A stretch of DNA of 64,000 bases from an uncultured Candidatus Rokubacteria bacterium (GTDB taxonomy: Bacteria; Methylomirabilota; Methylomirabilia; Rokubacteriales; DASRDR01). Positions 37,623 to 60,778 of the stretch are shown here, one piece after another (within the stretch, counting starts at the first letter, position 1; each line of letters opens with the position of its first letter). The notes beneath the pieces were generated by a model. It did not search any database. It saw only the letters and a program-made list of their open reading frames with translations, and had not been told where the DNA came from. The translations under genes were made by a program, and so were the position numbers. The DNA lies in contig CAWDVE010000018.1 of NCBI GenBank assembly GCA_963805625.1, forward strand, positions 1-64,000, read 5' to 3'.

Positions 37623-40049
37623 ATGACGACGCGGTTGATCGGTGCGCGCATCTCGCGAAACGAGGATCCGCGGCTCCTCCGGGGGCTGGGCTCGTTCGTC
37701 GACGACATCGAGCCGCGCGGGGTGCTTCACGCCGCGTGCCTCCGCTCCCCGCATGCGCACGCGCGGGTCCTCGCGATCGATACCGCCCGGGCCCGCGCGC
37801 TGCCGGGTGTGCACCTGGTCCTGACCGCTGCCGAGCTCGGCGAGCTCAACCAGCCGTCGCCGCTCCTGATTCCGCACCCGGGCCTGTCCCATCCGAGGAC
37901 CCAGCGGCCGCTCGCGGTCGACCAGGTCCGCTACACGGGCGAGCTCGTCGCCTTCGTGGTGGCCGATGACCGCTACGTGGCCGAGGACGCCGCCGGCCTG
38001 ATCGACGTCGCCTACGAGTCCCTGCCGGTGGTGACCGATCTGGAGGCGGCCGGCAATCCCGGAGGACCGCTCGTCCACGCGGACGTGCCAGCGAACCGCG
38101 CGGCGCGCCTCGTTCAGCAGGTGGGAGACCCGGACGCGGCGTTCAGGCGGGCGGCCCACGTTCTGCAGGAGCGGCTCTATATCGAGCGGAGCTGCGGCAG
38201 CCCGATCGAGGCGCGCGGCGTGGTCGCGGAGTACGACGCCCGGACCGGGCAGCTCCGGGTGTGGAGCTCGACGCAGGCGCCGCTGCCCATCAAGAACGGC
38301 CTCGCCCGGATCTTCGGCCTGCCCGAATTCAAGGTCGAGGTCGTCGTGCCGGACACCGGGGGCGGCTTCGGCACAAAGATCATGCTGTTCTACCCCGAGG
38401 AGATCCTGGTCCCGTACGCGGCGATGCGGCTCGGGCGAGCCGTGAAGTGGACCGAGGACCGCCTCGAGCACTTCGTCAGCGCCAGCCACGAGCGCGGGCA
38501 GCTCCACGACGTCGAGGTCGCCTGTGACGCGGCCGGCCGGATCCTCGGACTCCGGGACCGGTTCCGCCACGACGCCGGGGCCTACACGCCGTATGGCATC
38601 GTCATCCCGCTCATCACTTCGACCCAGCTCCCCGGCCAGTACCGGATCCGGCACTACCAGGTCGAGTTCGACGTGCTCTACACGAACAAGGTGATGACGA
38701 CCCCCTACCGCGGCGCCGGGCGCCCCCACGGCGCCTTCGTCATGGAGCGGGTCATCGGCCTCATCGCTCGCGAGCTCGGGCTCGAGCCCGCCGAGGTGCG
38801 CCGCCGAAACCTCATCCAGCCGGACGAGTTCCCGTGGGACGTGGGGCTTACGTTCCAGGACGGCGGACCGACGCGCTACGACAGCGGGAACTACCCCGCG
38901 GGCCTCGAGATGGCGCTCGAGGCGATCGGCGCGCGAGACTTCCGGGCCCGGCAGGCGGCGGCCCGCGCCGAGGGGCGATACCTCGGCCTCGGCGTCGCCT
39001 GCTACGTCGAGGGGACCGGGATCGGGCCCTACGAGGGCGCCCACGTACGGGTCGAGCCGAGCGGGCGGATCTTCGTGGCGACTGGCCTCACGACGCAGGG
39101 CCAAGGCCACCAGACGACCTTCGCTCAGATCGCCGCCGAGGCGCTCGGGTGCTCGCCGGCCGACGTGACGGTGGTGACCGGCGACACGGGGCGATTCAAC
39201 TGGGGCGCGGGAACGTTCGCGAGCCGCGCGCTGGTGACGAGCGGCAACGCGGTGGCGGCGGCGGCCCGCAAGGTCCGCGACAAGGCGCTCCACCTCGCGG
39301 GCGAGCTGCTCGAGGCCTCGCCGGGCGACATCGAGCTGGTCGACGGCGCTGCCCGGGTCAAGGGGGTGCCCGGACGCGAGCTCACGCTCGGAGCCCTGGC
39401 CACGGTGGCCAACCCGATCCGCTACGCCTACGGGAAGGAGGCGGCGGAGTCGGCGCTCCGGCTCGTCAAGCCTCGCCGCGGCGCCGTCCTCCGCGACGAC
39501 GAGGAACCGGGGCTCGAGGCGCGCGGCTACTACGCGCCGCCGCAGGCGACCTTCGCGAGCGGCTGCCACGCGGCGATCGTCGAGGTGGACGTCGAGACCG
39601 GCGAGGTCACGTTCGAGAAGTATGTCGTCCAGCATGACTGCGGGACCATCGTGAACCCGACGATCGTCGAGGGACAGATCCACGGCGGCGTCGCCCAGGG
39701 CATCGGGGGTGCGCTCTACGAGAAGCTCGCGTACGACGAGCACGGGCAGCTTCTTGCCGGGAGCTTCATGGACTTCCTCATGCCCACAGCCGCGGAGATC
39801 CCCGACATCACCGTCGTTCACCTGGAGACGCCGTCCCCGTTGAACCCGCTGGGCGTCAAGGGGGTGGGCGAGGCCGGGGCCATCCCGGTCCCCGCGCTGG
39901 TGGCCGAGGCGGTGGACGACGCGCTCGCTCCCTTCGGCGTACGGGTGCGCGAGATGCCGCTCAACCCGACCCGGATCCGGGAGCTGGTCGAGCAAGCCAC
40001 CGCCGGTGCCGGCGGACGCGCGTCGATCGGCCGGCGCGCTGGACCCTGA
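37623..40049 (+). CDS. Molybdenum hydroxylase large subunit (xanthine dehydrogenase/CoxL-like; candidate uracil/thymine dehydrogenase)
   Basis: EDPRLLRG.G.FVDD, GGGFGTK, PYRGAGRP, QGQGHQT, GQIHGGVAQG, KGVGEAG. Confidence 0.9.
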   Translation: MTTRLIGARISRNEDPRLLRGLGSFVDDIEPRGVLHAACLRSPHAHARVLAIDTARARALPGVHLVLTAAELGELNQPSPLLIPHPGLSHPRTQRPLAVDQVRYTGELVAFVVADDRYVAEDAAGLIDVAYESLPVVTDLEAAGNPGGPLVHADVPANRAARLVQQVGDPDAAFRRAAHVLQERLYIERSCGSPIEARGVVAEYDARTGQLRVWSSTQAPLPIKNGLARIFGLPEFKVEVVVPDTGGGFGTKIMLFYPEEILVPYAAMRLGRAVKWTEDRLEHFVSASHERGQLHDVEVACDAAGRILGLRDRFRHDAGAYTPYGIVIPLITSTQLPGQYRIRHYQVEFDVLYTNKVMTTPYRGAGRPHGAFVMERVIGLIARELGLEPAEVRRRNLIQPDEFPWDVGLTFQDGGPTRYDSGNYPAGLEMALEAIGARDFRARQAAARAEGRYLGLGVACYVEGTGIGPYEGAHVRVEPSGRIFVATGLTTQGQGHQTTFAQIAAEALGCSPADVTVVTGDTGRFNWGAGTFASRALVTSGNAVAAAARKVRDKALHLAGELLEASPGDIELVDGAARVKGVPGRELTLGALATVANPIRYAYGKEAAESALRLVKPRRGAVLRDDEEPGLEARGYYAPPQATFASGCHAAIVEVDVETGEVTFEKYVVQHDCGTIVNPTIVEGQIHGGVAQGIGGALYEKLAYDEHGQLLAGSFMDFLMPTAAEIPDITVVHLETPSPLNPLGVKGVGEAGAIPVPALVAEAVDDALAPFGVRVREMPLNPTRIRELVEQATAGAGGRASIGRRAGP

Positions 40050-41023
40050 TGCAGCCCGTGACGCGGCCACGCCCTGGCGGGAGCGCCCGGCTCCGATCCG
40101 GACTGAGGGCCGTCCGCGTGAGTCGGTGTGTCCGCGATCGGATCGACGCGTGGTGTCGAGCCGTGGTGCTCGGGGTCCAGCGTCGCGCCTGTCATCTCAC
40201 CGTTGATGACGGACCGCTCCTGATTCTCTCGACACCGGACGTACCGCTTGCGCCGAATGCCCTCGCGGTCGACGTGGCGCCCCACGTCACGCTGGGGGAC
40301 GCCGGCTTCCGAATTGGCCAGCTCGTCGCGCTGGGGGCGAGCGCGCCGCCCGACCGTGACGCCGATTGGCTCGTCACCTTCGGGGCGGCGTCGACCTGGG
40401 AGCCGCGCCCCCGCGTCCACCGGGTCGTCCTATGCGACCTGGTCGATCGGTTGCGGGCCGCGCGCGCCACCGTCATCGCCGACGGCGCAGAGGAGTCACT
40501 CCTCCCGCTCCTCTGGGTGTCGGAGTCCGACGTGGCTGGGCTCCGGCCGGGTGTCGTCGAGACGGCGGGTATCGCGGCGCGGCTCCTCTTGGACGCGGCG
40601 ATCCGGCGTGATGCGGCCTCCCTGGCCCGGGCGGCCCGCGGTCTCGCGGGGCTCGGGCCCGGGTTGACCCCATCGGGAGACGATCTCCTCGCCGGTTTCG
40701 CCGCGGCCTGGATCCTGGTCGGTGAAGCCCGCGGTCTCGATCGCGTGGCTCGCGAGCGCGTGACGGAGGCCCTCTTCGCGGGAGCCGAGCGCCGCGCGTC
40801 GGCGCTCGGGCGAGTCTGGCTCGAGCACGCCCTCCGGGGCGAGCTCCTCGAGCCGATGACCCGGTTCGTCGCCGCCTTCCTCGCCGCGGAGCCTCGCGAC
40901 CTCGGCGCGGCCGTGCGCGGCGCGCTCGCGGTTGGATCTTCGTCCGGGACCGACTGGATGGTGGGATTCGTTCTCGGAGCCGTAGCAACCCTCGATCGAG
41001 TGACGCGGAATCAGCCATGGTGA
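40049..41023 (+). CDS. DUF2877/YlbF (AllH)-like protein
   Basis: GLGPGLTPSGDD and VGSSSGTD motifs; precedes FdrA- and YlbE-like genes; start may be GTG 40118. Confidence 0.8.
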   Translation: MQPVTRPRPGGSARLRSGLRAVRVSRCVRDRIDAWCRAVVLGVQRRACHLTVDDGPLLILSTPDVPLAPNALAVDVAPHVTLGDAGFRIGQLVALGASAPPDRDADWLVTFGAASTWEPRPRVHRVVLCDLVDRLRAARATVIADGAEESLLPLLWVSESDVAGLRPGVVETAGIAARLLLDAAIRRDAASLARAARGLAGLGPGLTPSGDDLLAGFAAAWILVGEARGLDRVARERVTEALFAGAERRASALGRVWLEHALRGELLEPMTRFVAAFLAAEPRDLGAAVRGALAVGSSSGTDWMVGFVLGAVATLDRVTRNQPW

Positions 41024-42471
41024 CGCGGGGCAGGGTGCGGTCCGACACCTTCATCGACTCGGTGGCGCTCATGCAGGTCACGGAACGCGTCCGGGCGCTC
41101 CCCGGCGTCAGGGCGGCCGCCCTGGTGATGGCGACGGACCTGAACCGCCGGCTGCTCGACGAGACCGACCTCCTCCCCGCTGAGGCCAAGCGGGCCGGAT
41201 CGGCCGACCTCGTCATCACGGTGCGCGCGGAGACCGCCACCGCGGCGGACGCCGCTCTCGGTCAGGCCGAGGGATTCCTCGCCGCGCACCGGGGCGACCA
41301 GGGCCCGCACCGGAGCGAGCCGCCGCGCTCGATCGTCAGCTCGGCTCGCCGGCTGCCGGGGGCCAACGTCGCCCTGGTCTCGGTTCCCGGAGCCTATGCG
41401 ACGGCCGAGGCCCACCAGGCGCTCTCGGCCGGACTCCACGTGTTCTTGTTCAGCGATGGCGTGACGCTGGCCGACGAGATCGCGCTCAAGAAACGGGCCG
41501 AGACACGCGGGCTGCTCGTCATGGGACCGGAGTGCGGGACGAGTTTCCTGAACGGCGTGGGGCTCGGCTTCGCGAATCGCGTCCGGCAGGGACACGTCGG
41601 GCTGGTCGCGGCGTCCGGGACCGGACTCCAGGAGGTCGCGAGCCTGATCCACCGGCTGGGCGCGGGAGTCTCGCAGGGCATCGGTACCGGTGGGCGAGAC
41701 CTCCACGAAGCCGTGGGCGGGCTCGCCACGCTCCAGGTCCTGTCCTGGCTGGCCCGGGATCCCGAGACACACGTGATCGGACTCGTCTCGAAGGCCCCGT
41801 CGGCTGCCGTGGCCGAGCGGGTGCTGAAGGCCGCCGGCGCGTCCGGCAAGCCCGTGGTGGCGTACCTGCCCGGCTGGCGCGGGGCGACTCCGGCCGGTGT
41901 GCTGAGCGTGGCGACGCTCGAGGCGGCCGCGCTCGGGTGCGTCCGGGCGCTCGGGCGCAAGAGGCCGGGCTTCGACCGGCAGCGCGGGCGACGTCCGGGG
42001 CGCCCCCGCCCGGGCCAGGTGCTCGGCCTCTTCACGGGCGGCACGCTGTGTGACGAGGCGCGGACGATCGTCGGTGCTGCCGCGCGGGAGTTCATCGACT
42101 TCGGCGCCTCGGACTACACAGGGGGTCGGCCGCATCCGATCATCGACCCGAGTCTCCGGAACGCGGCCCTGGCGCGCGCCGGGAGCGATCGAAAGGTGGG
42201 AGTGCTGCTGATAGACGTGATCCTCGGCGACGGCGCCCATCCGGACCCAGCCGGCGCGCTCGCCGCCGCCATCGGCGAGGCGCGGACCCGCGCCCATCGG
42301 GGGCGCCGGACGCTCGAGGTCGTCGCGCACGTGGTCGGGACCGACGAGGATCCCCAGGGGCTCGCGAAGCAGGAAGGGGCGCTCCGGCGCGCGGGTGCCC
42401 GAGTCTGCCCGACGAACCGCCTGGCCGCCGAGCTGGCGCGAGACCTCGTAGGAGGACGCCGTGGCCGCTGA
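41017..42471 (+). CDS. fdrA: FdrA (AllF)-like protein, acyl-CoA synthetase alpha-like fold
   Basis: DSVALM, SVPGAYA, FSDGV, MGPECGT, ASGTGLQEV, GTGGRDL, GGTLCDEA, GRPHPIIDP. Confidence 0.88.
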   Translation: MVTRGRVRSDTFIDSVALMQVTERVRALPGVRAAALVMATDLNRRLLDETDLLPAEAKRAGSADLVITVRAETATAADAALGQAEGFLAAHRGDQGPHRSEPPRSIVSSARRLPGANVALVSVPGAYATAEAHQALSAGLHVFLFSDGVTLADEIALKKRAETRGLLVMGPECGTSFLNGVGLGFANRVRQGHVGLVAASGTGLQEVASLIHRLGAGVSQGIGTGGRDLHEAVGGLATLQVLSWLARDPETHVIGLVSKAPSAAVAERVLKAAGASGKPVVAYLPGWRGATPAGVLSVATLEAAALGCVRALGRKRPGFDRQRGRRPGRPRPGQVLGLFTGGTLCDEARTIVGAAAREFIDFGASDYTGGRPHPIIDPSLRNAALARAGSDRKVGVLLIDVILGDGAHPDPAGALAAAIGEARTRAHRGRRTLEVVAHVVGTDEDPQGLAKQEGALRRAGARVCPTNRLAAELARDLVGGRRGR

Positions 42472-43867
42472 GGGCGGGCTATTCGGCGCGGAGCTCAGGG
42501 TCGTCAGTGCCGGGGTCGATCTCTTCGCCGACGCGCTCGCCGCCCGCGGCGTCGAGGTCAGCCGCGTGGACTGGCGCCCGCCGGTCTCCGGCACGGCATC
42601 GACTCTCTGGCGAGACGAGGTCGACGCCGCCAACCGCGAGGCGCTCCGGCGACTCAGCGCCGCCCAGCCCGTCCTGATCGACGTCCGTCCGGCCCTCGAG
42701 GTCGTGCCCGGGATGACGCCGACGACGCTGCTCCACGCGGGGCCCCCGCTCCCGTGGGCGCGGATGAGCGGGCCGGTGCGGGGCGCCGTCATCGGGGCGC
42801 TTCTCTACGAGCGCCTCGCCGAGACGCCCGAGGAGGCCGAGCAGCTCGCTGCGTCGGGCGCCCTCGCGTTCGATCCCTGCCACCATCACGGCGCGGTCGG
42901 GCCGATGGCCGGGATCACGACGGCGCGCATGCCGGTCCTCGTGGTCGAGAACCGGACCAACGGCAATCGGAGCTACGCCACCCTGAACGAGGGGCTCGGC
43001 AAGGCGCTTCGCTACGGCGCCTTCGCGCCCGACGTCATCGAGCGGCTCCGGTGGTTCGAGGCGATCCTCGGACCGGCGCTCAGCGAGGTGCTCCGACGGA
43101 TCGGGGGTGTCGACATCCGGAGCCTGATCGCCCAGGCCGTCCAGATGGGAGACGAGTGCCACAACCGGAACCGGGCCGCCTCCGCGCTCCTCATCAAGAC
43201 GCTGGCGCCTCACGTGGCCGCCCTCGACCTCCCGCCGGCGGAGCGCGAGCGCATCCTCACCTTCGCGGCCGGGAATGACCACTTCTTCCTGAACGTGGGC
43301 ATGGCAGCGTGCAAGGCGGCGCTCGACGCCGCCCACGGCGTCCCCCGGAGCAGCATGGTGACGGTGATGGCGCGCAACGGCACCGAGTTCGGCATCCGCG
43401 TGAGCGGGCTCGGCGACCGGTGGTTCACCGGCCCGTCCGGGACGCCAGTCGGGCTCTACTTCGCGGGGTTCAGCGGGGAGGACGCCAACCCCGACATGGG
43501 CGACAGCGCGATCACCGAGACGGCCGGCCTCGGCGCCTTCGCGATGGCCGGCGCGCCGGCCATCGTCCAGTTCGTGGGCGGAACCCCGGCCGACGCGCTG
43601 GGCTACACTCGGCGCATGTACGAGATCACGCTCGGCGAGAGCGAGGCCTACCGGCTGCCGGCGCTCGACTTCCGGGGGACGCCGACCGGGATCGACGTCA
43701 GGCTCGTGCTCCAGACCGGGATCCTGCCCCAGATCAACACGGGCATCGCACACCGCCGCCCGGGGATCGGTCAGATCGGGGCCGGTCTCGTCAATCCGCC
43801 CCTCGCGTGCTTCGAGGCGGCCGGCCGAGCGCTGGCAGCCGAGCTGGCCCGAACGAGCCAGGCGTGA
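42461..43867 (+). CDS. DUF1116/YlbE (AllG)-like protein
   Basis: VDWRPP, LHAGPP, PCHHHGAVGPMAG, MGDECHNRN, ARNGTEFG, DMGDSAITE, INTGIAH. Confidence 0.88.
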   Translation: MAAEGGLFGAELRVVSAGVDLFADALAARGVEVSRVDWRPPVSGTASTLWRDEVDAANREALRRLSAAQPVLIDVRPALEVVPGMTPTTLLHAGPPLPWARMSGPVRGAVIGALLYERLAETPEEAEQLAASGALAFDPCHHHGAVGPMAGITTARMPVLVVENRTNGNRSYATLNEGLGKALRYGAFAPDVIERLRWFEAILGPALSEVLRRIGGVDIRSLIAQAVQMGDECHNRNRAASALLIKTLAPHVAALDLPPAERERILTFAAGNDHFFLNVGMAACKAALDAAHGVPRSSMVTVMARNGTEFGIRVSGLGDRWFTGPSGTPVGLYFAGFSGEDANPDMGDSAITETAGLGAFAMAGAPAIVQFVGGTPADALGYTRRMYEITLGESEAYRLPALDFRGTPTGIDVRLVLQTGILPQINTGIAHRRPGIGQIGAGLVNPPLACFEAAGRALAAELARTSQA

Positions 43868-43878
43868 GGGCAGGGGGC

Positions 43879-44703
43879 GTGAGCGCGCTCCGCGCCGCGG
43901 AGGGGGCCGCGCCGGCTCCCACACTGCCGGTCCGGCGGTGGCTCTCGTCATTCGCGGTGGCGGGGGCCCTCGTCCTTGCGTGGGAGGGGAGCAAGGCGCT
44001 GTTCGCGATTCCGCGGTACAAGCTTCCCCACGTCCACGAGATCCTCGGCGAGTTCGTCCGGGAGGGCGCGGACGGCACGCCCTGGCTCCTGATCATGGCC
44101 CACAACGCCGGGTACACGGCGCTCGAGAGCTTCGCCGGCTTCGCGCTCGGAGCCAGCACGGGCCTCGTCTTGGCCGTCCTCTTCGCGCGCTTCCGGCTGC
44201 TCGAGCGGGGCCTCTTGCCCTACGTGATGGTGTCCCAGACGGTGCCGATCCTCGCCGTCGCGCCGATGGTGGTCGTCTGGCTCGGCACCTCGTGGGTATC
44301 CAAGGCGGTGATCGCGGCGTACCTGACCTTCTTCCCGGTGACGGTCAACATGCTGCGGGGCCTCCGGGCGGTCGACCCGGACGCCCTCGCCCTCATGCGG
44401 GCGCTCGCCGCGACGCCGCGTCAGGTATTCCTGAAGCTCCGCTTCCCGGCCGCGCTTCCCTATCTCTTCACCGCGCTGCGGATCTCGGCGACCGCGAGCG
44501 TCGTCGGCGCGATCATCGGCGAGCTCCCGGTCGGGAGCCGGTTCGGGATGGGTGTGGTGATCATCAACGCGGCCCAGTACTACAACTGGCAGCCCGCGAA
44601 CCTCTGGGCGGCCATCCTGGTGTCGGCGCTCCTCGGGATCGCGTTCTACCACGCGGTCGCCGCCGTCGAGCGGCGCTGCATCCGCTGGCAGCCGACGACG
44701 TAG
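43879..44703 (+). CDS. NitT/TauT-family ABC permease
   Basis: QTVPILAVAP, FFPVTVN, KLRFPAALP, VGAIIGE. Confidence 0.88.
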   Translation: MSALRAAEGAAPAPTLPVRRWLSSFAVAGALVLAWEGSKALFAIPRYKLPHVHEILGEFVREGADGTPWLLIMAHNAGYTALESFAGFALGASTGLVLAVLFARFRLLERGLLPYVMVSQTVPILAVAPMVVVWLGTSWVSKAVIAAYLTFFPVTVNMLRGLRAVDPDALALMRALAATPRQVFLKLRFPAALPYLFTALRISATASVVGAIIGELPVGSRFGMGVVIINAAQYYNWQPANLWAAILVSALLGIAFYHAVAAVERRCIRWQPTT

Positions 44704-44706
44704 GCC

Positions 44707-45753
44707 GTGCCACACAGGACCCTGGCAGCGATTGTCCCGTTTACCAGGACCCGAGAGGCGAACGTCACGCGCTCCCGGTCGGCCGTTCTCCTCGCCCTGA
44801 CCCTGAGCCTCCTCGCTGCTCCGGTCGCCGCCCAGGTGCCGCAGTCCGGGCGAGTATCGCGGATCGGCCTTCTGTTCACGGGCTCGCCTCCACCCGAGTC
44901 CAATCGTGCGGTCGAGGCGTTACGACGCGGCCTCCGCGACCTCGGCTACGTGGAGGGTCGGACCATCCAGCTCGAGTACCGGTGGGCGCCGGAAGGTGGA
45001 TCCGATCAACTCCCTGGTCTGGCGGCTGAGTTGGTCCGTCTCGGGGTGGATGTCATCGTCGCCCAGACGAACGTCCACACCAGGGCGGCCAGCCAGGCGA
45101 CGTCGACGATTCCCATCGTGTTCGGCGCGGTCAGCGATCCGGTCGAGAGCGGTCTCGTGGCCGGCCTGGCCCGGCCGGGCGGGAACGTGACAGGGTCGAG
45201 CTTGCTAGCGCCGGAAGTCGTCAGGAAGCTGCTCGAGTTTCTCAAGGAAGCGGTTCCGGACGCCTCCCGGATCGCTGTTCTCGCAGATCCGGAGGGAAGC
45301 GTGCAGAGCCGGAAGGAGGCAGAGGCGGGGGCCCAGGTGCTGGGTCTGCGGCTTCATCGACTGGACGTGCGCGATCCGAGGGAGCTCGATCAGGCATTCC
45401 AGGCGGCCATGGCGGCCCGCGCCCAGGCCGTCATCACGATTCCGAGCTCCTTCTTTGCCCGACACCGCGGGCGCGTGGCGGAGCTCGCCCTGAAGAGCCG
45501 GCTCCCGGCGGTCTCCATCGAGACGGGATTCGCGGAGGCAGGCGGCCTCCTGTCCTATGGCCCGAACATTCCAGACAGCTTCCGGCGGGCTGCCCTCTAC
45601 GTCGACAAGATCCTCAAGGGCGCGAAGCCGGCCGACTTGCCCGTCGAGCAACCCACCAAGTTCGACCTGGTCCTCAACCTGAAGACCGCCAAGGCGCTCG
45701 GCCTGACGATCCCTCCCTCGGTTCTGGTGCGGGCAGATCGGGTGATCGAATGA
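44707..45753 (+). CDS. ABC substrate-binding protein (Tyr/Trp-binding DUF534-like family); start uncertain
   Basis: GLRDLGYVEG, DPVESGLV..LARPGGNVTG, GGLLSYG, YVDKILKGAKPADLPVEQPTKF. Confidence 0.88.
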   Translation: MPHRTLAAIVPFTRTREANVTRSRSAVLLALTLSLLAAPVAAQVPQSGRVSRIGLLFTGSPPPESNRAVEALRRGLRDLGYVEGRTIQLEYRWAPEGGSDQLPGLAAELVRLGVDVIVAQTNVHTRAASQATSTIPIVFGAVSDPVESGLVAGLARPGGNVTGSSLLAPEVVRKLLEFLKEAVPDASRIAVLADPEGSVQSRKEAEAGAQVLGLRLHRLDVRDPRELDQAFQAAMAARAQAVITIPSSFFARHRGRVAELALKSRLPAVSIETGFAEAGGLLSYGPNIPDSFRRAALYVDKILKGAKPADLPVEQPTKFDLVLNLKTAKALGLTIPPSVLVRADRVIE

Positions 45754-45791
45754 CCGTGCGCCTGCGTCTCAGGCGCGGGTAGGACGCACGC

Positions 45792-46595
45792 GTGGGGATC
45801 ATCGAGCTCGAGGGCGTGAGCAAGACGTATCCGAGCCCGGCTGGCGAGATGGAGGCGCTCCACGACGTCTCGTTCGCCGTCGAGCGCGGGGAGCTCGTCT
45901 CGCTGATCGGCCCGTCGGGATGCGGGAAGTCCACCCTCCTCCGGATCGTCGGCGACCTCGTCCCGCCATCGGGAGGCGCGGTCACCGTGAACGGGAAGCA
46001 CCCGGGGGCGGCGCGCCTCGACCGGGACTACGGTATCGTGTTCCAGGCGCCCGTGCTCTACGACTGGCGTACGGTGGAGGCCAACGTCGGCCTGCCGCTC
46101 GAGGTGATCGGCTGGCCGCGGCCGGAGCGCGACCAGCGGGTGCGGGCGCTCCTGCGGCTGGTCGGGCTCGACGCCTTCCGCCGCCATTATCCCTGGCAGC
46201 TCTCGGGCGGGATGCAGCAACGGGTCGCCATCGCGCGGGCGCTTGCGACCAATCCGGCGATCCTGCTCATGGACGAGCCGTTCGGAGCGCTCGACGAGAT
46301 GACGCGGGAGCGCCTGAACCTGGAGTTCCTGAACATCTGCCGCGAGACCGGCGCCACCGTGCTCTTCGTCACCCACAGCATCGCGGAGGCGGTCTTCCTC
46401 TCGACCCGCGTCGTCGTGCTAACCGCCCGACCCGGCCGCATCGAGCGGGTGGTGGACGTGGACCTTCCACAGCCCCGTAGCGAGAAGACGCGCGCTCTGC
46501 CGCGCTTCTTCGAGCTGGTCACTTTCGTGCGGGAGCACCTGGTCGAGGACCCCGCCCTGGCCGCCGCGGGGAGCCCCGCCAGCGAGGTTAGGTAG
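45792..46595 (+). CDS. NitT/TauT ABC ATPase
   Basis: GPSGCGKST, LSGGMQQR, MDEPFGALD, THSIAEAVFL. Confidence 0.92.
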   Translation: MGIIELEGVSKTYPSPAGEMEALHDVSFAVERGELVSLIGPSGCGKSTLLRIVGDLVPPSGGAVTVNGKHPGAARLDRDYGIVFQAPVLYDWRTVEANVGLPLEVIGWPRPERDQRVRALLRLVGLDAFRRHYPWQLSGGMQQRVAIARALATNPAILLMDEPFGALDEMTRERLNLEFLNICRETGATVLFVTHSIAEAVFLSTRVVVLTARPGRIERVVDVDLPQPRSEKTRALPRFFELVTFVREHLVEDPALAAAGSPASEVR

Positions 46596-46598
46596 CCG

Positions 46599-47369
46599 AT
46601 GCGACGCACGCGCGACTACGTGCCCGTCCTGGGGGTCTTCGCGCTCGGCCTCCTGTTGTGGGAGGGGTTCGTCTTCGCCTTCTCGATCGAGTTCTACCTC
46701 CTCCCGGCCCCGCACGTGATCGCGGCGACCCTCCGCCAGACCTACCCGGTCCTGCTGGAGGCGGCTCTCTACACGTTCGGCGAGGCGCTGGCCGGCTACG
46801 CCCTCGGCTGCGGTGGTGGCGTGCTGGTCGCCGCGCTGGCGAGCCGGTTCCCGGCGTTCGCCGGCGTCGTCCTTCCCTACGCGATCGCGTCGGCGTCGGT
46901 GCCGATCGTCGCGCTGGCGCCGCTGGCGATCGTCTGGTTCGGCATCGGCCCAGGCTCCAAGATCGCCATCGCGACCCTGATGACCTTCTTCCCGACCTTC
47001 GTCGGCACGCTCCGGGGCCTGCTCGGGGTCGACGCCCGGAGCCTCGAGCTGATGCGGAGCATCGCCGCCACCGAGTGGCAGGTGTTCTGGAAGCTCCGGC
47101 TCCCGCACAGCCTGCCTCACATGTTCACCGCGTTCCGGGCGTGCACCACGCTCGCGATGATCGGCGCGGTCGTGAGCGAGTTCTTCGGCGGCCCGATGAA
47201 GTCGCTCGGCGTGTACATCAAGAGCACGGCGAGTCTCTTCCAGACCCGCCAGTCGTGGTCGGCGATCCTCGTGGCCTGCGTGCTCGGGCTGACGTTCTAT
47301 CTGGCGGTGGCGCTCGTGGAGCGCCTCACCGTGCCGTGGCGAGTCGGCGAGGACCGCGCCGGCGCGTGA
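46599..47369 (+). CDS. NitT/TauT ABC permease
   Basis: VPIVALAPL, FFPTFV, KLRLPHSLP, IGAVVSE. Confidence 0.9.
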   Translation: MRRTRDYVPVLGVFALGLLLWEGFVFAFSIEFYLLPAPHVIAATLRQTYPVLLEAALYTFGEALAGYALGCGGGVLVAALASRFPAFAGVVLPYAIASASVPIVALAPLAIVWFGIGPGSKIAIATLMTFFPTFVGTLRGLLGVDARSLELMRSIAATEWQVFWKLRLPHSLPHMFTAFRACTTLAMIGAVVSEFFGGPMKSLGVYIKSTASLFQTRQSWSAILVACVLGLTFYLAVALVERLTVPWRVGEDRAGA

Positions 47370-47416
47370 ACGCCGCCCGGCGGTCGAAACTCCATGCGAT
47401 CTCGGAGGGACCGGCG

Positions 47417-48433
47417 ATGACGAGACAGAGGAACGGGACGACCTGGATCGCGCTGACCATGCTGGTACTGGCGGCGCTCCTGTGGCCGGGGTCGGCCGTG
47501 GCCCAGGCCACGAAGGTGCGGCTTCAGCTCAAGTGGGTGACCCAGGCCCAGTTCGCGGGCTACTACGCGGCCAAGCACCAGGGCCTCTATCGCGCCGAGA
47601 ACCTGGACGTCACCATCATCCCCGGCGGCCCGGACATCGTGCCCGAGCAGGTGGTGGCGGGCGGCGGGGCGGAGTTCGGGATCGACTGGTTGCCGAGTCT
47701 CCTGTCCGCGCGCGAGCAGGGCGTGCCGCTGGTCAACATCGGCCAGGTGTTCGCCTACAGCGGCATGCGGGAGCTCGCGTTCAAGACGTCCGGCATCAAG
47801 ACGCCGGCGGACCTCAAGGGCCGGAAGGTCGCGGTGTGGTTCGGCGGCAACGAGTTCGCCCTCCTGGCGACGCTCGCCAAGTACAAGCTCGACCCGCAGA
47901 AGGACCTCACGCTGGTCCAACAGCCGTTCGACATGAACCTCCTCCTCCAGAAGCAGGTCGACGCAGCGGCGGCCATGACCTACAACGAGTACAAGCAGGT
48001 GCTGGACGGGGGCGTGAAGCCGGAGGACCTGGTCGTCATCGACTTCAACGTCGAGGGCACAGCCATGCTCGAGGACGGGATCTTCGTCCGCGCGGACTGG
48101 CTCCGCGCCGGCAAGAACAAGGAGACCGCCGCCCGGTTCCTCCGGGCCTCCCTCAAGGGCTGGGAGTTCTGCCGGAACCAGGCGGCCGCCTGCGTAGACC
48201 TCGTGCTGAAGGAGAGCCCGGTGCTCGGCAAGCCGCACCAGGCCTGGATGATGGCCGAGATCAACAAGCTCGTCTGGGGCCCGCCCGCACCCAAGACGCC
48301 GGCGGGGAAGATGGACCCCGAGGCCTTCAAGCGCACCGCCGACATCGCGCTGAAGTTCGGCGTGATCAAGAAGCCCGCCGAGGCGTCCGCCTACACCCAC
48401 GAGATCTGGGAGCTGACCCGGACCCTCAAGTAG
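47417..48433 (+). CDS. NMT1/THI5-like substrate-binding protein (pyrimidine/nucleobase-type)
   Basis: Signal peptide; LQLKWVTQAQFAGYYAA, PGGPD, AMTYNE. Confidence 0.88.
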   Translation: MTRQRNGTTWIALTMLVLAALLWPGSAVAQATKVRLQLKWVTQAQFAGYYAAKHQGLYRAENLDVTIIPGGPDIVPEQVVAGGGAEFGIDWLPSLLSAREQGVPLVNIGQVFAYSGMRELAFKTSGIKTPADLKGRKVAVWFGGNEFALLATLAKYKLDPQKDLTLVQQPFDMNLLLQKQVDAAAAMTYNEYKQVLDGGVKPEDLVVIDFNVEGTAMLEDGIFVRADWLRAGKNKETAARFLRASLKGWEFCRNQAAACVDLVLKESPVLGKPHQAWMMAEINKLVWGPPAPKTPAGKMDPEAFKRTADIALKFGVIKKPAEASAYTHEIWELTRTLK

Positions 48434-48453: not shown

Positions 48454-49722
48454 ATGGACCTGGTGATCCGGGGCGCGCGCGTCGCGGGGTTCGATCGGCC
48501 GGTCGACATCGGCGTCCGCGACGGGCGCATCGCACGGCTCGCCCCGGGGCTGCACGACCGAGGGGCGGTCGAGATCGAGGCCGAGGGCCGGCTCGTGACG
48601 CCGGCCCTCGTCGAACCGCACCTCCACCTGGACGCCGTCCTCACCGAGGGCGAGCCGCGGTCCAACCGGAGCGGCTCACTGTTCGAGGGCATCGAGATCT
48701 GGGGCGAGCGCGTGAAGAGCCTCACGCCGGCAGACATCACGCGCCGGACCGACACGGCTCTCCGCTGGCTCCTGGCCCACGGCGTCACCCACCTCCGTGC
48801 CCACGTGGACGTGTGCGACCCGGCGCTCACGGCGGTGCGGGCGCTCCTCCAGGTCCGCGAGGCCTGGCGCGGCGTGATGGACATCCAGCTCGTCGCGTTC
48901 CCCCAGCAGGGGATCTACTCCTTCCCCGACGGCGAGAAGCTCATGATCGAGGCGCTCGAGCTCGGCGTGGACGTCGTGGGCGGCATCCCGCACTACGAGT
49001 GGACCCGGGAGTACGGGGAGCGGGACGTGAAGACCGCGCTGGCGCTGGCCGCACGCTACGGGCGGCCCGCCGACCTCCACTGCGACGAGACCGACGACGA
49101 CCAGAGCCGCTTCCTGGAGGTGCTCGCCGCCGAGACGATCCGCCTCGGCCTCCAGGGACGGGTGACGGCGAGCCATACCACCGCGATGCACTCCTACAAC
49201 AACGCCTACGCCTACAAGCTGATCCGTCTGGCGCGGGCCGCCGGCCTCCACTTCGTCACGAACCCGCTCGACAACTCCGTCCTCCAGGGGCGCTTCGACT
49301 CCTATCCGATCCGGCGCGGGTTCACGCGGGTGAAGGAGCTCCTCCGGGCTGGTGTGAACGTCGCCTTCGGCCACGACTCGATCATGGACCCCTGGTATCC
49401 GCTAGGGGTCGGCGACCCGGTCCAGTCCTGCTTCGTGATGGTCCACTACGGCCACATGTCAGGCCACGACGAGCTCGAGCAGATGCTCGACTTCGTGACG
49501 ACCCGGGCGGCCGAGTGCCTCGGCCTCCCGGACTACGGCCTCGCCGAGGGCCGCCGCGCAGACCTGGTCGTCTTCGACGCGCCGACGCCGGTCGACGCGG
49601 TGCGGACCCTGGCGGTCCGGACGGCGGTGGTGTCTCGCGGCCGCGTCGTCGCGCGGACCTCGCCGCCGCGGACCACGGTCACGCTGGACGGGCGCGAGTC
49701 GCCGGTGACGTTCCTGAGGTGA
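48454..49722 (+). CDS. codA: Cytosine deaminase
   Basis: EPHLHLD, NRSGSLFEGI, AFPQQG, GGIPHYE, HCDETDD, SHTTAMHSY, FGHDSIMDPWYPLG. Confidence 0.92.
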   Translation: MDLVIRGARVAGFDRPVDIGVRDGRIARLAPGLHDRGAVEIEAEGRLVTPALVEPHLHLDAVLTEGEPRSNRSGSLFEGIEIWGERVKSLTPADITRRTDTALRWLLAHGVTHLRAHVDVCDPALTAVRALLQVREAWRGVMDIQLVAFPQQGIYSFPDGEKLMIEALELGVDVVGGIPHYEWTREYGERDVKTALALAARYGRPADLHCDETDDDQSRFLEVLAAETIRLGLQGRVTASHTTAMHSYNNAYAYKLIRLARAAGLHFVTNPLDNSVLQGRFDSYPIRRGFTRVKELLRAGVNVAFGHDSIMDPWYPLGVGDPVQSCFVMVHYGHMSGHDELEQMLDFVTTRAAECLGLPDYGLAEGRRADLVVFDAPTPVDAVRTLAVRTAVVSRGRVVARTSPPRTTVTLDGRESPVTFLR

Positions 49723-49744: not shown

Positions 49745-50071
49745 ATGATCTCGAGGCACTGGAAGGGCATCGCCAGGCCGGGGCAGGCAGAGCGGTACGT
49801 CGACCACCTCCGGCGCGACGTCTTCCCGAAGCTCGTGGCGATTCCCGGCTTCGTCCGCACCACGATCCTGAGGCGAGAGGTCGCCGACGGCACCGAGTTC
49901 CAGATCGTCACGGTGTGGCGCTCGCTGAGCGCCGTCGAGACGTTTGCCGGGAAGGATCCGGACGCCGCCGTCGTTCCGCCCATCGTCCAGGCGATGATGG
50001 CGGCCTATGATCGTGACGTCGTGCGCCACGAGCTGGCCGACAGCTACGAGCCCGTGGCACAGCCCCAGTGA
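49745..50071 (+). CDS. ABM-like dimeric alpha-beta barrel protein
   Basis: MISRHWKG, EFQIVTVW.SL, FAGKDPDAAVVP pattern. Confidence 0.7.
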   Translation: MISRHWKGIARPGQAERYVDHLRRDVFPKLVAIPGFVRTTILRREVADGTEFQIVTVWRSLSAVETFAGKDPDAAVVPPIVQAMMAAYDRDVVRHELADSYEPVAQPQ

Positions 50072-50883
50072 CCGGATCGGGGGGCGGCGCTGGCCCGGCG
50101 CGACGGCGCGCGCCCCGGAGCAGCGAGCTCCGCGGCTGGCTGGTGTTCGGCGTGGTCGCCCTCGCCGGCTGGGAGGCGGCGTCGCGACTCTACGCCCAGC
50201 CCTACCTCCTCCCCGCCCCGTCGCAGATCGCGCGGGAGCTGGGCGAGAACTGGGAGCTCGTCCTCGCCTATGCCTGGATCACCACCCAGGAGGTCGTGGT
50301 CGGGTTCACCCTCGGGGCGGTCGTGGCGCTCCTGGCCGCCATGCTCTTCCTGTGGCTGCCCGCATTCCTGGAGGACTTCCTCTACCGCGTGATCGTGACC
50401 CTGAACAGCACCCCGTTCGTGGCCCTGGCCTCGCTGGCGGTGGTCTGGTTCGGGCTCGGGATCACCAGCAAGATCCTGATCGCGGGGATGTACACCTTCT
50501 TCGCGGTGCTCTACACGACCCACAAGGAGTTCATCTCGATCGAGCCGATCCGCGAGCAGCTCATGGACGTCTACGGCGCGACGTGGTGGCAGCGGATCTT
50601 CCTGCTGAAGGTGCCCTCGGCCCTCCCCATCGTGTTCGTGAGCCTGAAGGGCGGCGTGATGGCGGCGGTCAACGGCGCGATCGTCGGCGAGCTGTTCGGG
50701 GCCTTCGAGGGGCTCGGCTACATGATCCTGGACTCGCGGTACGTCGGGAACACGGTGCGGGTGTTTCTCGCGGCCGTCTTCTGCACGCTGATCGGCTGGC
50801 TCCTGCTGGGCGTGGTTGCGCTGGCCGAGCGGGCCCTGCTACCGTGGCACGTGAGCATGGCGCGCGATCGGGGCGCGTCTTAG
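50068..50883 (+). CDS. NitT/TauT ABC permease
   Basis: LLPAPSQI, WFGLG, KVPSALP, GAIVGELF, GLGY. Confidence 0.88.
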   Translation: MTGSGGGAGPARRRAPRSSELRGWLVFGVVALAGWEAASRLYAQPYLLPAPSQIARELGENWELVLAYAWITTQEVVVGFTLGAVVALLAAMLFLWLPAFLEDFLYRVIVTLNSTPFVALASLAVVWFGLGITSKILIAGMYTFFAVLYTTHKEFISIEPIREQLMDVYGATWWQRIFLLKVPSALPIVFVSLKGGVMAAVNGAIVGELFGAFEGLGYMILDSRYVGNTVRVFLAAVFCTLIGWLLLGVVALAERALLPWHVSMARDRGAS

Positions 50884-50911
50884 AGCCATCAACGAAAAGG
50901 AGGACACGACG

Positions 50912-51925
50912 ATGAGGCGATCGCTTCGGCTCCTGGCCCTCGTGCTGGTGCTCGCCTTCGCCGCGCTTCCCGCCGGAACCGGCCTCCCGGACGCCCAGGC
51001 CCAGGCGGCCAAGACGAAGGTGACGGTCTTCGAGGCCTGGTTCATCCACAACGAGTCGATGGGGACGCCGACGGCGGTCGAGAAAGGCTTGTTCGAGGGT
51101 CTCGACGTCAAGGTGGTGGGTGGCGGCCCGGGGCTGTCCTCCATCGACCGGGTGATGGCGGAAAGCAAGGGCGGCGGCGTCGCGTTCGGGGTGGACTACC
51201 CCTACAACGTTCTGGAGGCGCGCGAGAAGCAGAAGCTCCCGCTGGTCGTCGTCGCCCACGATTTCCAGAAGTCGGCGGTGCGGCTCATCTCGTGGAAGGA
51301 GATCAAGAGCGCGAAGGACATCGAGGGCACCGTCGCCACCTGGATCGGCTACGACAAGCAGGTGAAGGCCGCGATCGGGCCGGACTGGGCGAAGCGCATC
51401 AAGGTCGTCAACCAGCAGGGCGACCCCGCGACGATCGGCTCGTGGCTCAAGAAGGACTACCCCTTTGCGCACGCGATGATCTACAACGAGATCCTCGTCG
51501 CCAAGCGGATGGCGAAGGACAAGTACTGGACGTACTCGTTCTCGGACTTCGGGATCGACTGGCCGGAGAACGTGGTGTTCACGACCGAGGAGACCATCAA
51601 GAAGCATCCCAAGGTCATCCAGGCCTTCCTGGCCGGGCGGTACAAGGGCTACAAGCACGCCCTGGCCAACCGCGACGAGGCTGTGCAGATCCTCCTCAAG
51701 TACAACAGCAACCTGAAGGGACAGGAGAAGCACGAGCTGGAGGGGATGGAGGCCATCGCGTCGGTCATGGTGACGCCCGACACGAAGGCCAAGGGCCTCG
51801 GGTACATCAACCCGGCTGGCTGGGACCGGGTGGCCCGTGACCTCAGCAAGGCCGGGTTCTACCCCTCGGCGCCCGACGTCAAGGCGGCCTACACCGCGGA
51901 GTTCCCGAGCGGGGTGACTCCCTAG
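50912..51925 (+). CDS. NMT1-like substrate-binding protein
   Basis: Signal peptide, GGGPG, AMIYNE; lies between permease and ATPase; AAGGAGG SD. Confidence 0.8.
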   Translation: MRRSLRLLALVLVLAFAALPAGTGLPDAQAQAAKTKVTVFEAWFIHNESMGTPTAVEKGLFEGLDVKVVGGGPGLSSIDRVMAESKGGGVAFGVDYPYNVLEAREKQKLPLVVVAHDFQKSAVRLISWKEIKSAKDIEGTVATWIGYDKQVKAAIGPDWAKRIKVVNQQGDPATIGSWLKKDYPFAHAMIYNEILVAKRMAKDKYWTYSFSDFGIDWPENVVFTTEETIKKHPKVIQAFLAGRYKGYKHALANRDEAVQILLKYNSNLKGQEKHELEGMEAIASVMVTPDTKAKGLGYINPAGWDRVARDLSKAGFYPSAPDVKAAYTAEFPSGVTP

Positions 51926-51941
51926 GCCCGAGCCGGGGGAG

Positions 51942-52775
51942 ATGGCCCCGCCGCTCGTCCGGCTCGAGCGGGTCTCGAAGCGCTACGAAGTCGCCCGGCG
52001 GCCGGGGCCCGCCGGCGTCGAGGAGGAGACCGCACTGCAGGCGGTCACCGACTTCACGCTCGACGTGGGGGCGGGGGAGTTCGTCTCCATCATCGGTCCC
52101 TCCGGGTGCGGCAAGACCACGGTGCTGTTCCTCCTGGCCGGCCTGCGACCGCCCAGCGCCGGCCACGTGGAGGTCTGCGGCCAGCCCGCCGCCAATGCGA
52201 TGCGGAGCGGGCTGGCAAGCGTCATCTTCCAGCAGCCCGTCCTCTTCGAGTGGCTGACGGTGGAGGACAACGTCCTCCTCCCGCTGCGGATGCGGGACCC
52301 GCGCTGGTGGGCGTGGCCGCTTCGCCGGCGGGGCTACGCGGCGCGCGCCCATGAGGCCCTGGCCACGGTCGAGCTCGACGCGTTCGCCCACTACCGGCCA
52401 GACGCCCTGTCCGGGGGCATGCAGCAGCGCGTGGCGATCGCGCGGGCGCTGACGCTGGCGCCCCGGGTCCTGCTGCTCGACGAGCCCTTCGGGGCGCTGG
52501 ACGAGCTCACGCGCGATCGGATGAACCAAGAGCTGCTCCGGCTCTGGGAGGCACGTGGTCTCAGCATTGTCTTCGTGACGCACTCGATCGAGGAGGCGGT
52601 CTTCCTCTCCGACCGCGTCGTCGTGATGGGCCGGGCGCGCTCGGAAAAGACCGGCTCCAGCATCGTGCGGATCGTCGACGTGGACTTGCCCCGGCCGCGT
52701 CGCCTGGCGGTGAAGGAGGAGGTCGCCTTCTTCCAGAAGGTGCGCGAGGGGCGCGAGGCGCTCCGGGAGGCGTAG
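51942..52775 (+). CDS. NitT/TauT ABC ATPase
   Basis: GPSGCGKT, LSGGMQQR, LDEPFGALD. Confidence 0.92.
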   Translation: MAPPLVRLERVSKRYEVARRPGPAGVEEETALQAVTDFTLDVGAGEFVSIIGPSGCGKTTVLFLLAGLRPPSAGHVEVCGQPAANAMRSGLASVIFQQPVLFEWLTVEDNVLLPLRMRDPRWWAWPLRRRGYAARAHEALATVELDAFAHYRPDALSGGMQQRVAIARALTLAPRVLLLDEPFGALDELTRDRMNQELLRLWEARGLSIVFVTHSIEEAVFLSDRVVVMGRARSEKTGSSIVRIVDVDLPRPRRLAVKEEVAFFQKVREGREALREA

Positions 52776-53569: not shown

Positions 53570-53747
53570 TTGTTGCGAAGACAGGCCACGCAACATCACC
53601 TCTCCGCGCGCGGATGGCTAAATTCACGGCCCCCGCTTCACGTACTCGCCGAGAACGCATTCAGTCCGCCATCGTGATTCGCCGTCGGCCGACTAAGATC
53701 GTCGTCCAGTGACGGAGCGCCCAGCCTCGAGTGGTGGGACCGGATCG

Positions 53748-57803: not shown

Positions 57804-58678
57804 AGCCCCCCGTCTTCGAGTACACGGCGGTCAGCTCGATCGACGAGGCCGTTGCCGAGCTCGGGCAGCACGGCGATGCGGCGAAGCTCCTCGCCGGGGG
57901 CCAGAGCCTTGTCCCGCTCCTGAACATGCGACTGGCCACGCCCGAGCGCCTGATCGATCTCAACCGCGTGGCGGAGCTCGTGTACATCACGGTTCGCAGC
58001 GGCGGCCTTGCCGTAGGGGCGATGACGCGGCAGCGGGCCGTGGAGCGCAGCGCGCTCGCCGCCACGCACGTTCCCCTCCTGAGCGACGCGCTCCCTTGGG
58101 TGGGACACTTCCAGATCCGGAACCGCGGGACCCTGGGGGGCAGCCTGAGCCATGCCGACCCGGCCGCCGAGCTGCCGGCGGTGGCTCTCTGCCTAGACGC
58201 CCGCTTCACCGTCCGGGGGCCGGCGGGCGAGCGGACGCTCGTGGCGCAGGAGTTCTTCTTGACCCAGTTGACTACGGCTCTCGCGCCGACCGAGCTGCTC
58301 ACCGAGGCCTGGTTCCCCGCGATCCCGCGGAACTCGGGTTCGGCCTGGCTCGAGCTGGCCCGGCGCCACGGGGATTACGCGCTCGTCGGCGTGGGGGCGG
58401 TCGTGACGATGTCGGGCGACGAAATCGGGGAGGCGCGGATCGCCCTGACCGGGGTGGGGGACCGGCCCATCCGGGCGCGCGAGGCCGAGGCGCAACTCAT
58501 GGGTGAGTCGCCCACGCCGAGCATGCTGGCCGAGGCTGTCGAGGCTGTCCGGCGGGCGATCGACCCGGGGAGCGACATCCACGCGACCGCGGCGTACCGT
58601 CGGCACATCGCCGGCGTGCTCACCGGGCGGGCCATCCGGCTCGCCGTGGCGCGTGCGACGGGAGCCGAGCGTGCCTGA
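57800..58678 (+). CDS. Molybdenum hydroxylase FAD subunit (CoxM-like)
   Basis: [34 protein letters not shown]. Confidence 0.92.
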
Positions 58679-58741
58679 CCGCCGGGCTCGGTCTCAGGGC
58701 CCCCGTCCCCCAAAGGGTGGAGCGGCGTGCGGGGGTCCGGA

Positions 58742-59239
58742 ATGACGCCAGCCCCGCTCGAGATGTGCCTGCGGGTCAACGGGCGCGAGCACGCGGAAAC
58801 AGTGCCGCCGCGCCTCTTGCTCTCGGACTTCCTCCGCCACCGCCTGGGCCTGACCGGCACCCACGTCGGGTGCGAGCACGGCGTCTGCGGGGCCTGCACT
58901 GTGCTCCTCGACGGCGAGGCGGTGCGGTCGTGCCTGCTCCTCGCCATCCAGGCCGCCGGCGCCGAGGTGACGACCGTCGAGGGGCTGGCGGAGGCGGACG
59001 GCCCGCTCCATCCGGTCCAGCAGGCCTTCCACGAGATGCACGCGCTCCAGTGCGGGTTCTGCACGCCGGGGTTTCTCCTGTCGGTCGTCGCCTTCCTGCG
59101 GGACGTACCTGCACCCTCGGACGACGAGATCCGGCGCGGGCTGGCGGGCAATCTCTGTCGCTGTACCGGCTACCAGAACATCGTGCGGGCCGTCCGGCGG
59201 GCGAGCGAGCTCCTGGCGGACCCGCCGCCGCCCGCCTGA
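58742..59239 (+). CDS. Molybdenum hydroxylase [2Fe-2S] subunit (CoxS-like)
   Basis: [29 protein letters not shown]. Confidence 0.94.
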
Positions 59240-60378: not shown

Positions 60379-60778
60379 AGCGGCACCCCTGGAAGGTTGT
60401 CGATCGGATCGTGGACCCTGAGAAGGCTGGTCGCGTCTGGGGCTGGACCGCTGCGCCTAGGTGAACGGGCCATTCTCGACGCTGAGGCCGACAGATCCCA
60501 GGAGCGCGTCCCTCCGCGCGGGACCGGCCAGCGGGTGGTGAGGGCGGGTCGCCGCCGGAGGGTGACAGCCACGGTCGGCAACTCGTGGCGGCCGAATTTC
60601 TCGTATGCGATGCGCGATGTGTCAAAGGAGTCAGCGGGGCGCCGGGAAGCGCCTGCGCGACGGCTTCCCGCTGCCGTCGGACCGTGGTTGGGCCCTCGCC
60701 CGTGAGGTGATGGATCCACACCCGTGTGTCTCGTCGACCGCTCTCACCGTCGATCACTCGCAACACCCGTGTGGTCAT
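60362..60778 (-). CDS. Hypothetical protein or gene fragment
   Basis: Strong GAGGAGGA SD before ATG 60778; no recognisable motif. Confidence 0.3.

Follow-up and report, generated by a model that had tools for sequence, protein, structure and literature searches.

The best described relative of the genes reported here is the Escherichia coli enzyme AllFGH, which, according to the sections of PMC11326118 consulted, converts oxalurate to oxamate and carbamoyl phosphate; deletion of allF or allG is reported there to leave no oxamate, and deletion of allH to leave 1.2 mM of 17.7. The exchange of a hydrolase for a phosphorolase in one gene slot has a precedent in UacY/YgeW (bioRxiv 10.1101/2025.05.19.654654). 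Our analysis concerns a 64,000-nucleotide stretch (the window) that forms the start of contig C18 (CAWDVE010000018.1) of an uncultured Candidatus Rokubacteria genome (GCA_963805625.1; 7.27 Mb, 99.9% complete, 6.3% contaminated). Homologues of all three AllFGH subunits, the DUF2877, FdrA and DUF1116 proteins (the trio), were found in it by Pfam, NCBIfam and identity comparisons, in agreement with the likeness noted in a preliminary description of this DNA, and their genes share a cluster with those of a barbiturase-type ring hydrolase and a molybdenum (Mo) hydroxylase. We consider it probable that the trio is an acylurea phosphorolase that acts third in the oxidative breakdown of pyrimidines, ureidomalonate + Pi -> malonamate + carbamoyl phosphate; we infer the reactions from gene identities, coupling, signature residues and co-occurrence.

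The cluster spans 37.6–60.4 kb with all genes on one strand. The Mo hydroxylase large-subunit gene (37623..40049, + strand) ends in a TGA whose final base is the first base of the ATG of the DUF2877 gene (40049..41023, +; PF11392, 73 bits against a cut-off of 25), which encodes an AllH/YahE-like subunit. The genes for FdrA (41017..42471, +; Pfam Ligase_CoA; best PDB match 3DMY), the AllF/YahF-like subunit with a succinyl-CoA synthetase-like fold, and DUF1116 (42461..43867, +; PF06545, 324 bits), the AllG/YahG-like subunit, follow with overlaps of 7 bases (DUF2877/FdrA), 11 bases (FdrA/DUF1116) and 4 bases (DUF1116 and the permease gene behind it). Translational coupling links the trio with the Mo large subunit on one side and with the downstream permease on the other, and the overlaps and Pfam matches bear out the earlier statement that the three genes are coupled behind the Mo gene. 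The barbiturase-type gene lies about 15 kb from the trio. The module is real and conserved.

In the proposed pathway pyrimidines would be taken up by the ABC transporters of the cluster, cytosine would be converted to uracil by a CodA-like deaminase, uracil would be oxidised to barbiturate by the three-subunit Mo hydroxylase, and barbiturase would open barbiturate to ureidomalonate. Phosphorolysis of ureidomalonate by the trio would then give malonamate and carbamoyl phosphate instead of urea; an amidase, or else the ATP-dependent HydAB, would hydrolyse the malonamate. A co-encoded carbamate kinase would make ATP from the carbamoyl phosphate in Actinomycetota. A search of the present genome revealed no intact carbamate kinase, so here carbamoyl phosphate would more likely enter arginine or pyrimidine synthesis, or decay to ammonia.

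The pairing with barbiturase, on whose conservation the preliminary description had made its proposal depend, recurs in three phyla, and this co-occurrence supports both the link and the view that the trio stands in for a hydrolytic enzyme. The earlier suggestion that the trio may replace ureidomalonase is thus supported in part: the enzyme replaced in Proteobacteria is an amidase-signature protein and not a recognised ureidomalonase. In the open full-text literature searched (subscription papers lay outside this scope) there was no joint mention of barbiturase with fdrA, DUF1116, carbamoyltransferase or carbamate kinase, and the carbamoyl-phosphate ending, which the preliminary description did not know to have been described, was not found there. 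More tentatively, FdrA-DUF1116 might be a general acylurea phosphorolase that is paired with Toblerone-fold ring hydrolases; phosphorolysis (with ATP where a kinase is present) would then be the commonest oxidative pyrimidine end in Actinomycetota and Rokubacteriales and the ureidomalonase end the exception, and a clade with a near-cyanuric-acid signature (Gly345 to Ala) would be a second, independently evolved barbiturase.

Co-occurrence of the trio with barbiturase

Among 251 genomes sampled from the same class, 159 carry a DUF1116 gene of any kind, 59 a Toblerone hydrolase (26 barbiturase-type by identity) and 57 an orthologue of the Mo large subunit. DUF1116 proteins of at least 70% identity (close DUF1116) were counted in 39 genomes among the 150 matches listed. 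A Toblerone hydrolase is present in 32 of these 39 as against 27 of the other 212, and the Mo orthologue in 33 of 39 as against 24 of 212; the hydrolase likewise accompanies the Mo orthologue in 47 of 57 genomes and occurs in 12 of the 194 others. Because many of the genomes compared here and below are related to one another, such counts cannot be taken as independent. The hydrolase is barbiturase-type in 23 of the 47.

The Actinomycetota sample comprised 400 genomes at least 90% complete, drawn around the L065 genome (Acidimicrobiia), which itself was left out, and contained 17 genomes with a barbiturase-type hydrolase and four with another Toblerone type; 59 hydrolase-negative genomes, picked in blocks with some small genomes skipped, served as controls. 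DUF1116 was found in all 17 barbiturase genomes (in pieces in one), in one of the four others and in 6 of the 59 controls, and it lies on the barbiturase contig within 45 kb in 13/17. Within about 10 kb of barbiturase, 13/17 genomes have a carbamate kinase, each of these 13 kinases retaining two core motifs, and 10/17 have FdrA or DUF1116, four loci being cut by contig ends. The usual order is barbiturase, regulator and permease, kinase, DUF2877, FdrA, DUF1116 and Mo subunits; no other enzyme family recurs near the 17 barbiturases among markers and unannotated open reading frames (ORFs), a housekeeping neighbour aside. In Embleya and Nonomuraea, barbiturase, Mo subunits, HydAB and the trio occupy one region, and cultured actinobacteria carry the cluster. 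Ureidomalonase may be an Asp/Glu racemase-family protein; none of the 24 matches to that family in the 17 genomes lies within 20 kb of barbiturase, and the Rokubacteria genome has two weak matches, on other contigs.

For Proteobacteria and other groups we took the best 80 barbiturase-type loci, many of them short, with 10 kb flanks (in close relatives the trio falls beyond such a flank). Of these loci, 34 have only an amidase-signature gene, 5 have only FdrA/DUF1116, one has both and 40 have neither. In L088, L102 and L126 the FdrA/DUF1116 genes fill the slot behind the transporter that an amidase holds elsewhere, and in L095, L122 and L128 they stand directly behind barbiturase. A genome-wide follow-up of 50 of these loci's genomes (non-Rokubacteria, picked from 66) found the amidase in 38 and DUF1116 in 19, including 7 of the 12 that lack the amidase; at an E value of 1e-120 the slot amidase has no match in any of the five genomes whose loci have FdrA/DUF1116 only. 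AtzE, an amidase of the slot family, strips the terminal NH2 from the acylurea carboxybiuret (as stated in the part of PMC6219798 consulted), so the amidase and phosphorolytic routes would both give malonamate.

At four alphaproteobacterial loci (L064, L086, L094, L097) URC1/URC4-like genes (GTP cyclohydrolase-like and DUF1688) adjoin the barbiturase cluster, accompanied in three of the four by uracil phosphoribosyltransferase; two pyrimidine routes stand side by side there.

Relationship of the trio to E. coli AllFGH and YahEFG

AllF and YahF each share 38% identity with FdrA, and DUF1116 is 50% identical to AllG and 49% to YahG; DUF2877 is 30–35% identical to YahE/AllH over its C-terminal 118–128 residues only. 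The gene order DUF2877-FdrA-DUF1116 and the point at which FdrA and DUF1116 are split are of the yahEFG type, not the allFGH type. FdrA scores 402 bits with the NCBIfam model NF004760, under the cut-off of 433, in part because a C-terminal piece is carried on DUF1116 instead. Its His373-Pro374 pair is invariant in 42/42 homologues. The predicted DUF1116 model (mean predicted local distance difference test score 89.7) matched only 3CLQ in a fold search (Z 64.1, root-mean-square deviation 1.0 over 413 residues); the next match, at Z 3.9, gave no mechanistic clue.

AllG and YahG fall outside the window DUF1116 clade in trees of 147, 46 and 39 rows, the exclusion of AllG being supported in all three; judged from these phylogenies, the window DUF1116 protein is not orthologous with E. 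coli AllG. AllG also has Gln/Thr/Gln where the window protein and most homologues have Asn235/Asn272/His274. In one tree the window clade was joined to three actinobacterial rows (Shimodaira-Hasegawa approximate likelihood ratio 96), a grouping that did not resolve with more rows, and betaproteobacterial barbiturase-adjacent DUF1116 copies belong to another clade in all trees, so we do not claim a single origin of the pyrimidine-linked DUF1116 proteins. The DUF2877 family was not found in 18 of the 39 genomes with a close DUF1116, many of whose assemblies are incomplete; this and the allH deletion result are consistent with DUF2877 likely being an accessory subunit. By analogy the trio likely works as AllFGH does, but its context and the phylogenetic position of its DUF1116 protein are not those of AllFGH.

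The ring hydrolase and the molybdenum hydroxylase

The product of 59284..60378 (+), the only Toblerone-family member in its genome, has barbiturase 5HWE as its best PDB match (487 bits, versus 325 for the best cyanuric acid hydrolase). The published barbiturase signature is Asn195, His321, Lys325, Val345 and Ser/Ala346 (PMC3758960, in the part consulted), the first residue being Gln according to PMC4051656 and Asn in 5HWE. The window protein has Asn/His/Lys/Val/Gly, matching four of the five sites, and Gly at site 346 also occurs in 6/17 actinobacterial barbiturase-type proteins. In a 41-row tree barbiturases and cyanuric acid hydrolases separate with 100/100 support and the window protein goes with the former; its NCBIfam label, cyanuric acid amidohydrolase, comes from a model in which both groups are lumped together. 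By signature and tree position it is assigned to barbiturase (Toblerone group VI). Outside the window's genus, 74 of the 80 barbiturase-type proteins (L054-L133) have Asp at site 346, which is undescribed in the signature paper.

A second hydrolase clade, with the signature Arg/Thr/Arg/Ala/Gly, also adjoins the Mo gene (15 rows in the tree, some duplicates, and 9 in another set; members L026:6757-7959, L136-L142 and L249-L257), and its members hold the same spot beside that gene as barbiturase does in four other genomes. Apart from the Ala in the position that faces ring atom 5, the signature is of the cyanuric-acid type. Either these are a second kind of barbiturase, possibly one that evolved independently, or the cluster handles triazines in those genomes.

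The Mo large subunit, identified by Pfam MoCoBD, is labelled CO dehydrogenase by NF040766 (1073 bits, cut-off 950). The form I aerobic CO dehydrogenase has a Cys-containing active-site loop. The loop of the window protein is of the form II type as named in PMC10773090, and the form I model TIGR02416 reaches 555 bits of the 991 needed; we therefore reject an aerobic CO dehydrogenase (form I) for 37623-40049. For form II enzymes, CO is an unlikely physiological substrate (PMC6794299). Xanthine dehydrogenase models score far under cut-off, and orthologues 51–56% identical adjoin barbiturase in other phyla. From this gene context the form II CoxL-like protein is likely the large subunit of a uracil/thymine dehydrogenase. 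The medium (FAD) and small (2Fe-2S) subunit genes (57800..59239, +; Pfam) are separated from that of the large subunit. A different Mo hydroxylase, about 30% identical to this one, adjoins many DUF1116 homologues whose flanks have no Toblerone hydrolase (L174-L236, 29 rows); these may represent another pathway.

Carbamate kinase and the fate of carbamoyl phosphate

The preliminary description saw no carbamate kinase in the window, and family scans of the 32 ORFs within 31.7-64 kb found none over cut-off. The genome-wide search that it called for returned a degenerate gene at C17:312020-312946 (245 bits, cut-off 358, three conserved motifs altered), behind a 176-residue DUF1116 stump, together with a broken remnant, and no intact kinase. 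A gene of the C17 type (L001:1474-2421), with altered catalytic motifs, is an open frame in 12 of 14 genomes of the genus (206–270 bits in these 12); a degenerate gene so kept may have another role. Of the 39 genomes with a close DUF1116, 11 have a typical kinase (at least 316 bits) and 28 lack one, and in one genus 1/17 has a kinase, DUF2877 and kinase both being missing from 16/17 that keep FdrA-DUF1116. We therefore reject energy conservation in this genome as unsupported. The description of the route as energy-conserving fits Actinomycetota, where the kinase is in the operon, but neither the present genome nor the majority of its relatives in the class. An ornithine carbamoyltransferase over cut-off and a pyrR-pyrB-pyrC region on C17 make anabolic use or decay of carbamoyl phosphate likelier than ATP synthesis in this lineage.

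Many Rokubacteriales have a second FdrA-DUF1116(-DUF1116)-kinase-CodA module upstream of pyrR-pyrB-pyrC-carAB-like genes (L038, L040, L043, L044, L051, L053), one DUF1116 copy of which groups with E. coli AllG; what remains of it here (C17:311472-320474) is the stump and the degenerate kinase only.

Alternative functions of the trio

Several observations weigh against ureidomalonate phosphorolysis by the trio. The Rhodococcus pathway ends in malonate and urea (PMC3758960, in the part consulted). DUF1116 is also present in 12 of the 38 amidase-bearing Proteobacteria, 5 of the 50 genomes have neither gene, and at two loci (L171, L217) an amidase and FdrA-DUF1116 share one operon. The Rokubacteria genome itself encodes an amidase (G000:C10:902354-903793) that shares 47% identity with the slot amidase and could take malonamate or bypass the trio. 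The hydrolase is not barbiturase-type in 16 of the 32 close-DUF1116 genomes that have one, those fetched having Arg/Thr/Arg/Ala/Gly, and a close DUF1116 is found in only 16 of the 26 barbiturase-type class genomes (some copy in 24/26, against a background of 135/225). In 5/38 loci a close DUF1116 (70–79%) adjoins isochorismatase (BiuH/TrtA-like) genes, among 12 conserved sites no DUF1116 residue splits barbiturase-linked from biuret-linked copies, and on plasmids FdrA-DUF1116-kinase genes flank a cyanuric acid hydrolase.

The C10 amidase and the two shared operons would fit a trio that acts on a parallel intermediate, such as methyl-ureidomalonate of a thymine branch or an N-carbamoyl compound made by HydAB; ureidomalonate would in that case be left to an amidase or to an unrecognised ureidomalonase. 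FdrA-DUF1116 is indeed followed directly by HydA(B) in 5/38 close loci, and a HydAB B-subunit homologue, found in 51/80 barbiturase-type loci, is the commonest barbiturase neighbour in Proteobacteria. However, near the 17 actinobacterial barbiturases HydAB occurs once, as against 13 kinases and 10 FdrA/DUF1116 genes, and none of the C10 amidase's neighbours, whose ORF starts were inspected, is pyrimidine-related; we regard a parallel substrate as unlikely. It is slightly more doubtful that the substrate is biuret or 1-carboxybiuret, in a cluster for triazine breakdown (5-azauracil or ammelide being turned into cyanuric acid, for instance), with urea or allophanate and carbamoyl phosphate as products. 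The 24 of 57 Mo-orthologue genomes with only a non-barbiturase Toblerone enzyme speak for this reading, as do the BiuH-like neighbours of the window's DUF1116 clade, the allFGHK genes that adjoin biuH in nitrifiers (PMC12625717, in the part consulted) and trzD-type genes on plasmids, and a urease-like gene in the genome (628 bits, under the cut-off of 680). The genome's only ring hydrolase, though, bears the barbiturase signature, and barbiturase is reported inactive on cyanuric acid (PMC4051656); uracil phosphoribosyltransferase, thymidine phosphorylase and URC-like genes flank the cluster's relatives; and no close BiuH or AtzF was found in the genome, the best matches being 37% and 32%.

A true oxamate carbamoyltransferase, acting on purine-derived oxalurate beside a xanthine-type dehydrogenase, would have all three subunits and the family's only demonstrated substrate (PMC11326118, in the sections consulted) in its favour. 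Yet neither allantoinase nor ureidoglycolate dehydrogenase is over cut-off among the 32 ORFs scanned, as the preliminary description had also found, and in the 99.9% complete genome AllD, PuuE and AllB are not over their family cut-offs (distant homologues exist, AllD reaching 222 of 496 bits) and OHCU decarboxylase has no match. An allantoin-to-oxalurate context that could supply oxalurate was thus not found in this genome, and the positions of AllG and of the xanthine dehydrogenase models given above also speak against oxalurate, which we hold to be highly improbable. We give equally little credence to CoA chemistry, in which the succinyl-CoA-synthetase-like subunit would turn ureidomalonate or malonamate into a CoA thioester with no free malonamate. 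FdrA bears CoA-binding and ligase domains, the 16/17 genomes of one genus keep FdrA-DUF1116 without DUF2877 and kinase, and CoA-transferase genes lie near barbiturase in Embleya and L281; against this, the E. coli enzyme assay mixture in the sections of PMC11326118 consulted listed no CoA, and the kinase in actinobacterial operons implies carbamoyl phosphate. Phosphorolysis of ureidomalonate remains the reading that we prefer.

Other genes of the cluster

By Pfam, the cluster runs from the Mo large subunit through DUF2877, FdrA and DUF1116 to an NMT1/THI5-type ABC transporter (two permeases, ATPase and binding protein; 43864..48433, +), a cytosine deaminase-like amidohydrolase (48454..49722, +; NF005748, 509 bits, cut-off 438; NF006685, 496 bits, cut-off 483), a second NMT1-type ABC transporter (50068..52775, +), a fused hydantoinase A/B of the ATP-dependent amidohydrolase family (53709..57803, +; Hydantoinase_A/B), the Mo medium and small subunits and the Toblerone-fold hydrolase. 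An ABC_sub_bind gene (44707-45753; Pfam) is inserted within the first transporter cassette, and in relatives L014-L018 this position holds from none to four copies in tandem. Short or truncated genes at the cluster edges (36600-37046, no family; 53072-53569, SBP_bac_3; 60726-61682, SBP_bac_5) suggest recent rearrangement. The uracil phosphoribosyltransferase gene, upstream of the cluster in relatives, is here on C19 with thymidine phosphorylase and a nucleoside transporter. Two soil/rhizosphere RNA runs matched 12% and 5% of sequence words; their contigs were short, mostly <95% alike and uninformative on expression.

Comparison with known systems

If our reading is correct, a known route of pyrimidine breakdown has a new ending, an enzyme family whose sole shown reaction dates from 2024 has a second substrate, and genes labelled oxalurate enzyme, "cyanuric acid hydrolase" and "CO dehydrogenase" in abundant soil bacteria need to be read anew.

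In plasmid cassettes L239 and L240 a cyanuric-acid-type hydrolase and carbamate kinase accompany fdrA and DUF1116, and DUF2877 lies at a greater distance; these cassettes likely perform a phosphorolytic step in triazine breakdown. Such trzD-type cassettes (fdrA-DUF1116-hydrolase-arcC), and allFGHK-biuH in nitrifiers, resemble the window in having the trio, with a kinase, beside a Toblerone or biuret hydrolase; the trzD-type cassette differs from it in its cyanuric-acid-type hydrolase and its DUF1116 clade. The part of PMC12625717 consulted interprets allFGHK beside biuH as oxalurate enzymes, and "barbitur" is absent from that paper's supplements.

The uncharacterised E. coli YahE-YahF-YahG-(YahI, YahJ) shares the order DUF2877-FdrA-DUF1116 with the window, and the window DUF1116 resembles YahG in carrying an N-terminal piece of about 55 residues that AllF bears at its C-terminus. 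YahG, however, is only 49% identical to it and groups elsewhere in trees, and the yah region, unlike the window, has no barbiturase or Mo enzyme. To E. coli AllF-AllG-AllH with AllK (EC 2.1.3.5; PMC11326118, in the sections consulted) the window offers homologues of all three subunits (38%, 50% and 35%, the last partial) and a predicted chemistry that would by analogy be alike, phosphorolysis of the terminal carbamoyl group of an acylurea, but it has the yah-type order and split, no allantoin genes and no intact kinase. With the oxidative pathway of Rhodococcus erythropolis, which consists of uracil/thymine dehydrogenase, barbiturase and ureidomalonase, it has the barbiturase-type hydrolase and the three-subunit Mo hydroxylase in common; the described end there is hydrolysis to malonate and urea, whereas the cut predicted for the window would fall one bond further out and be made with phosphate.

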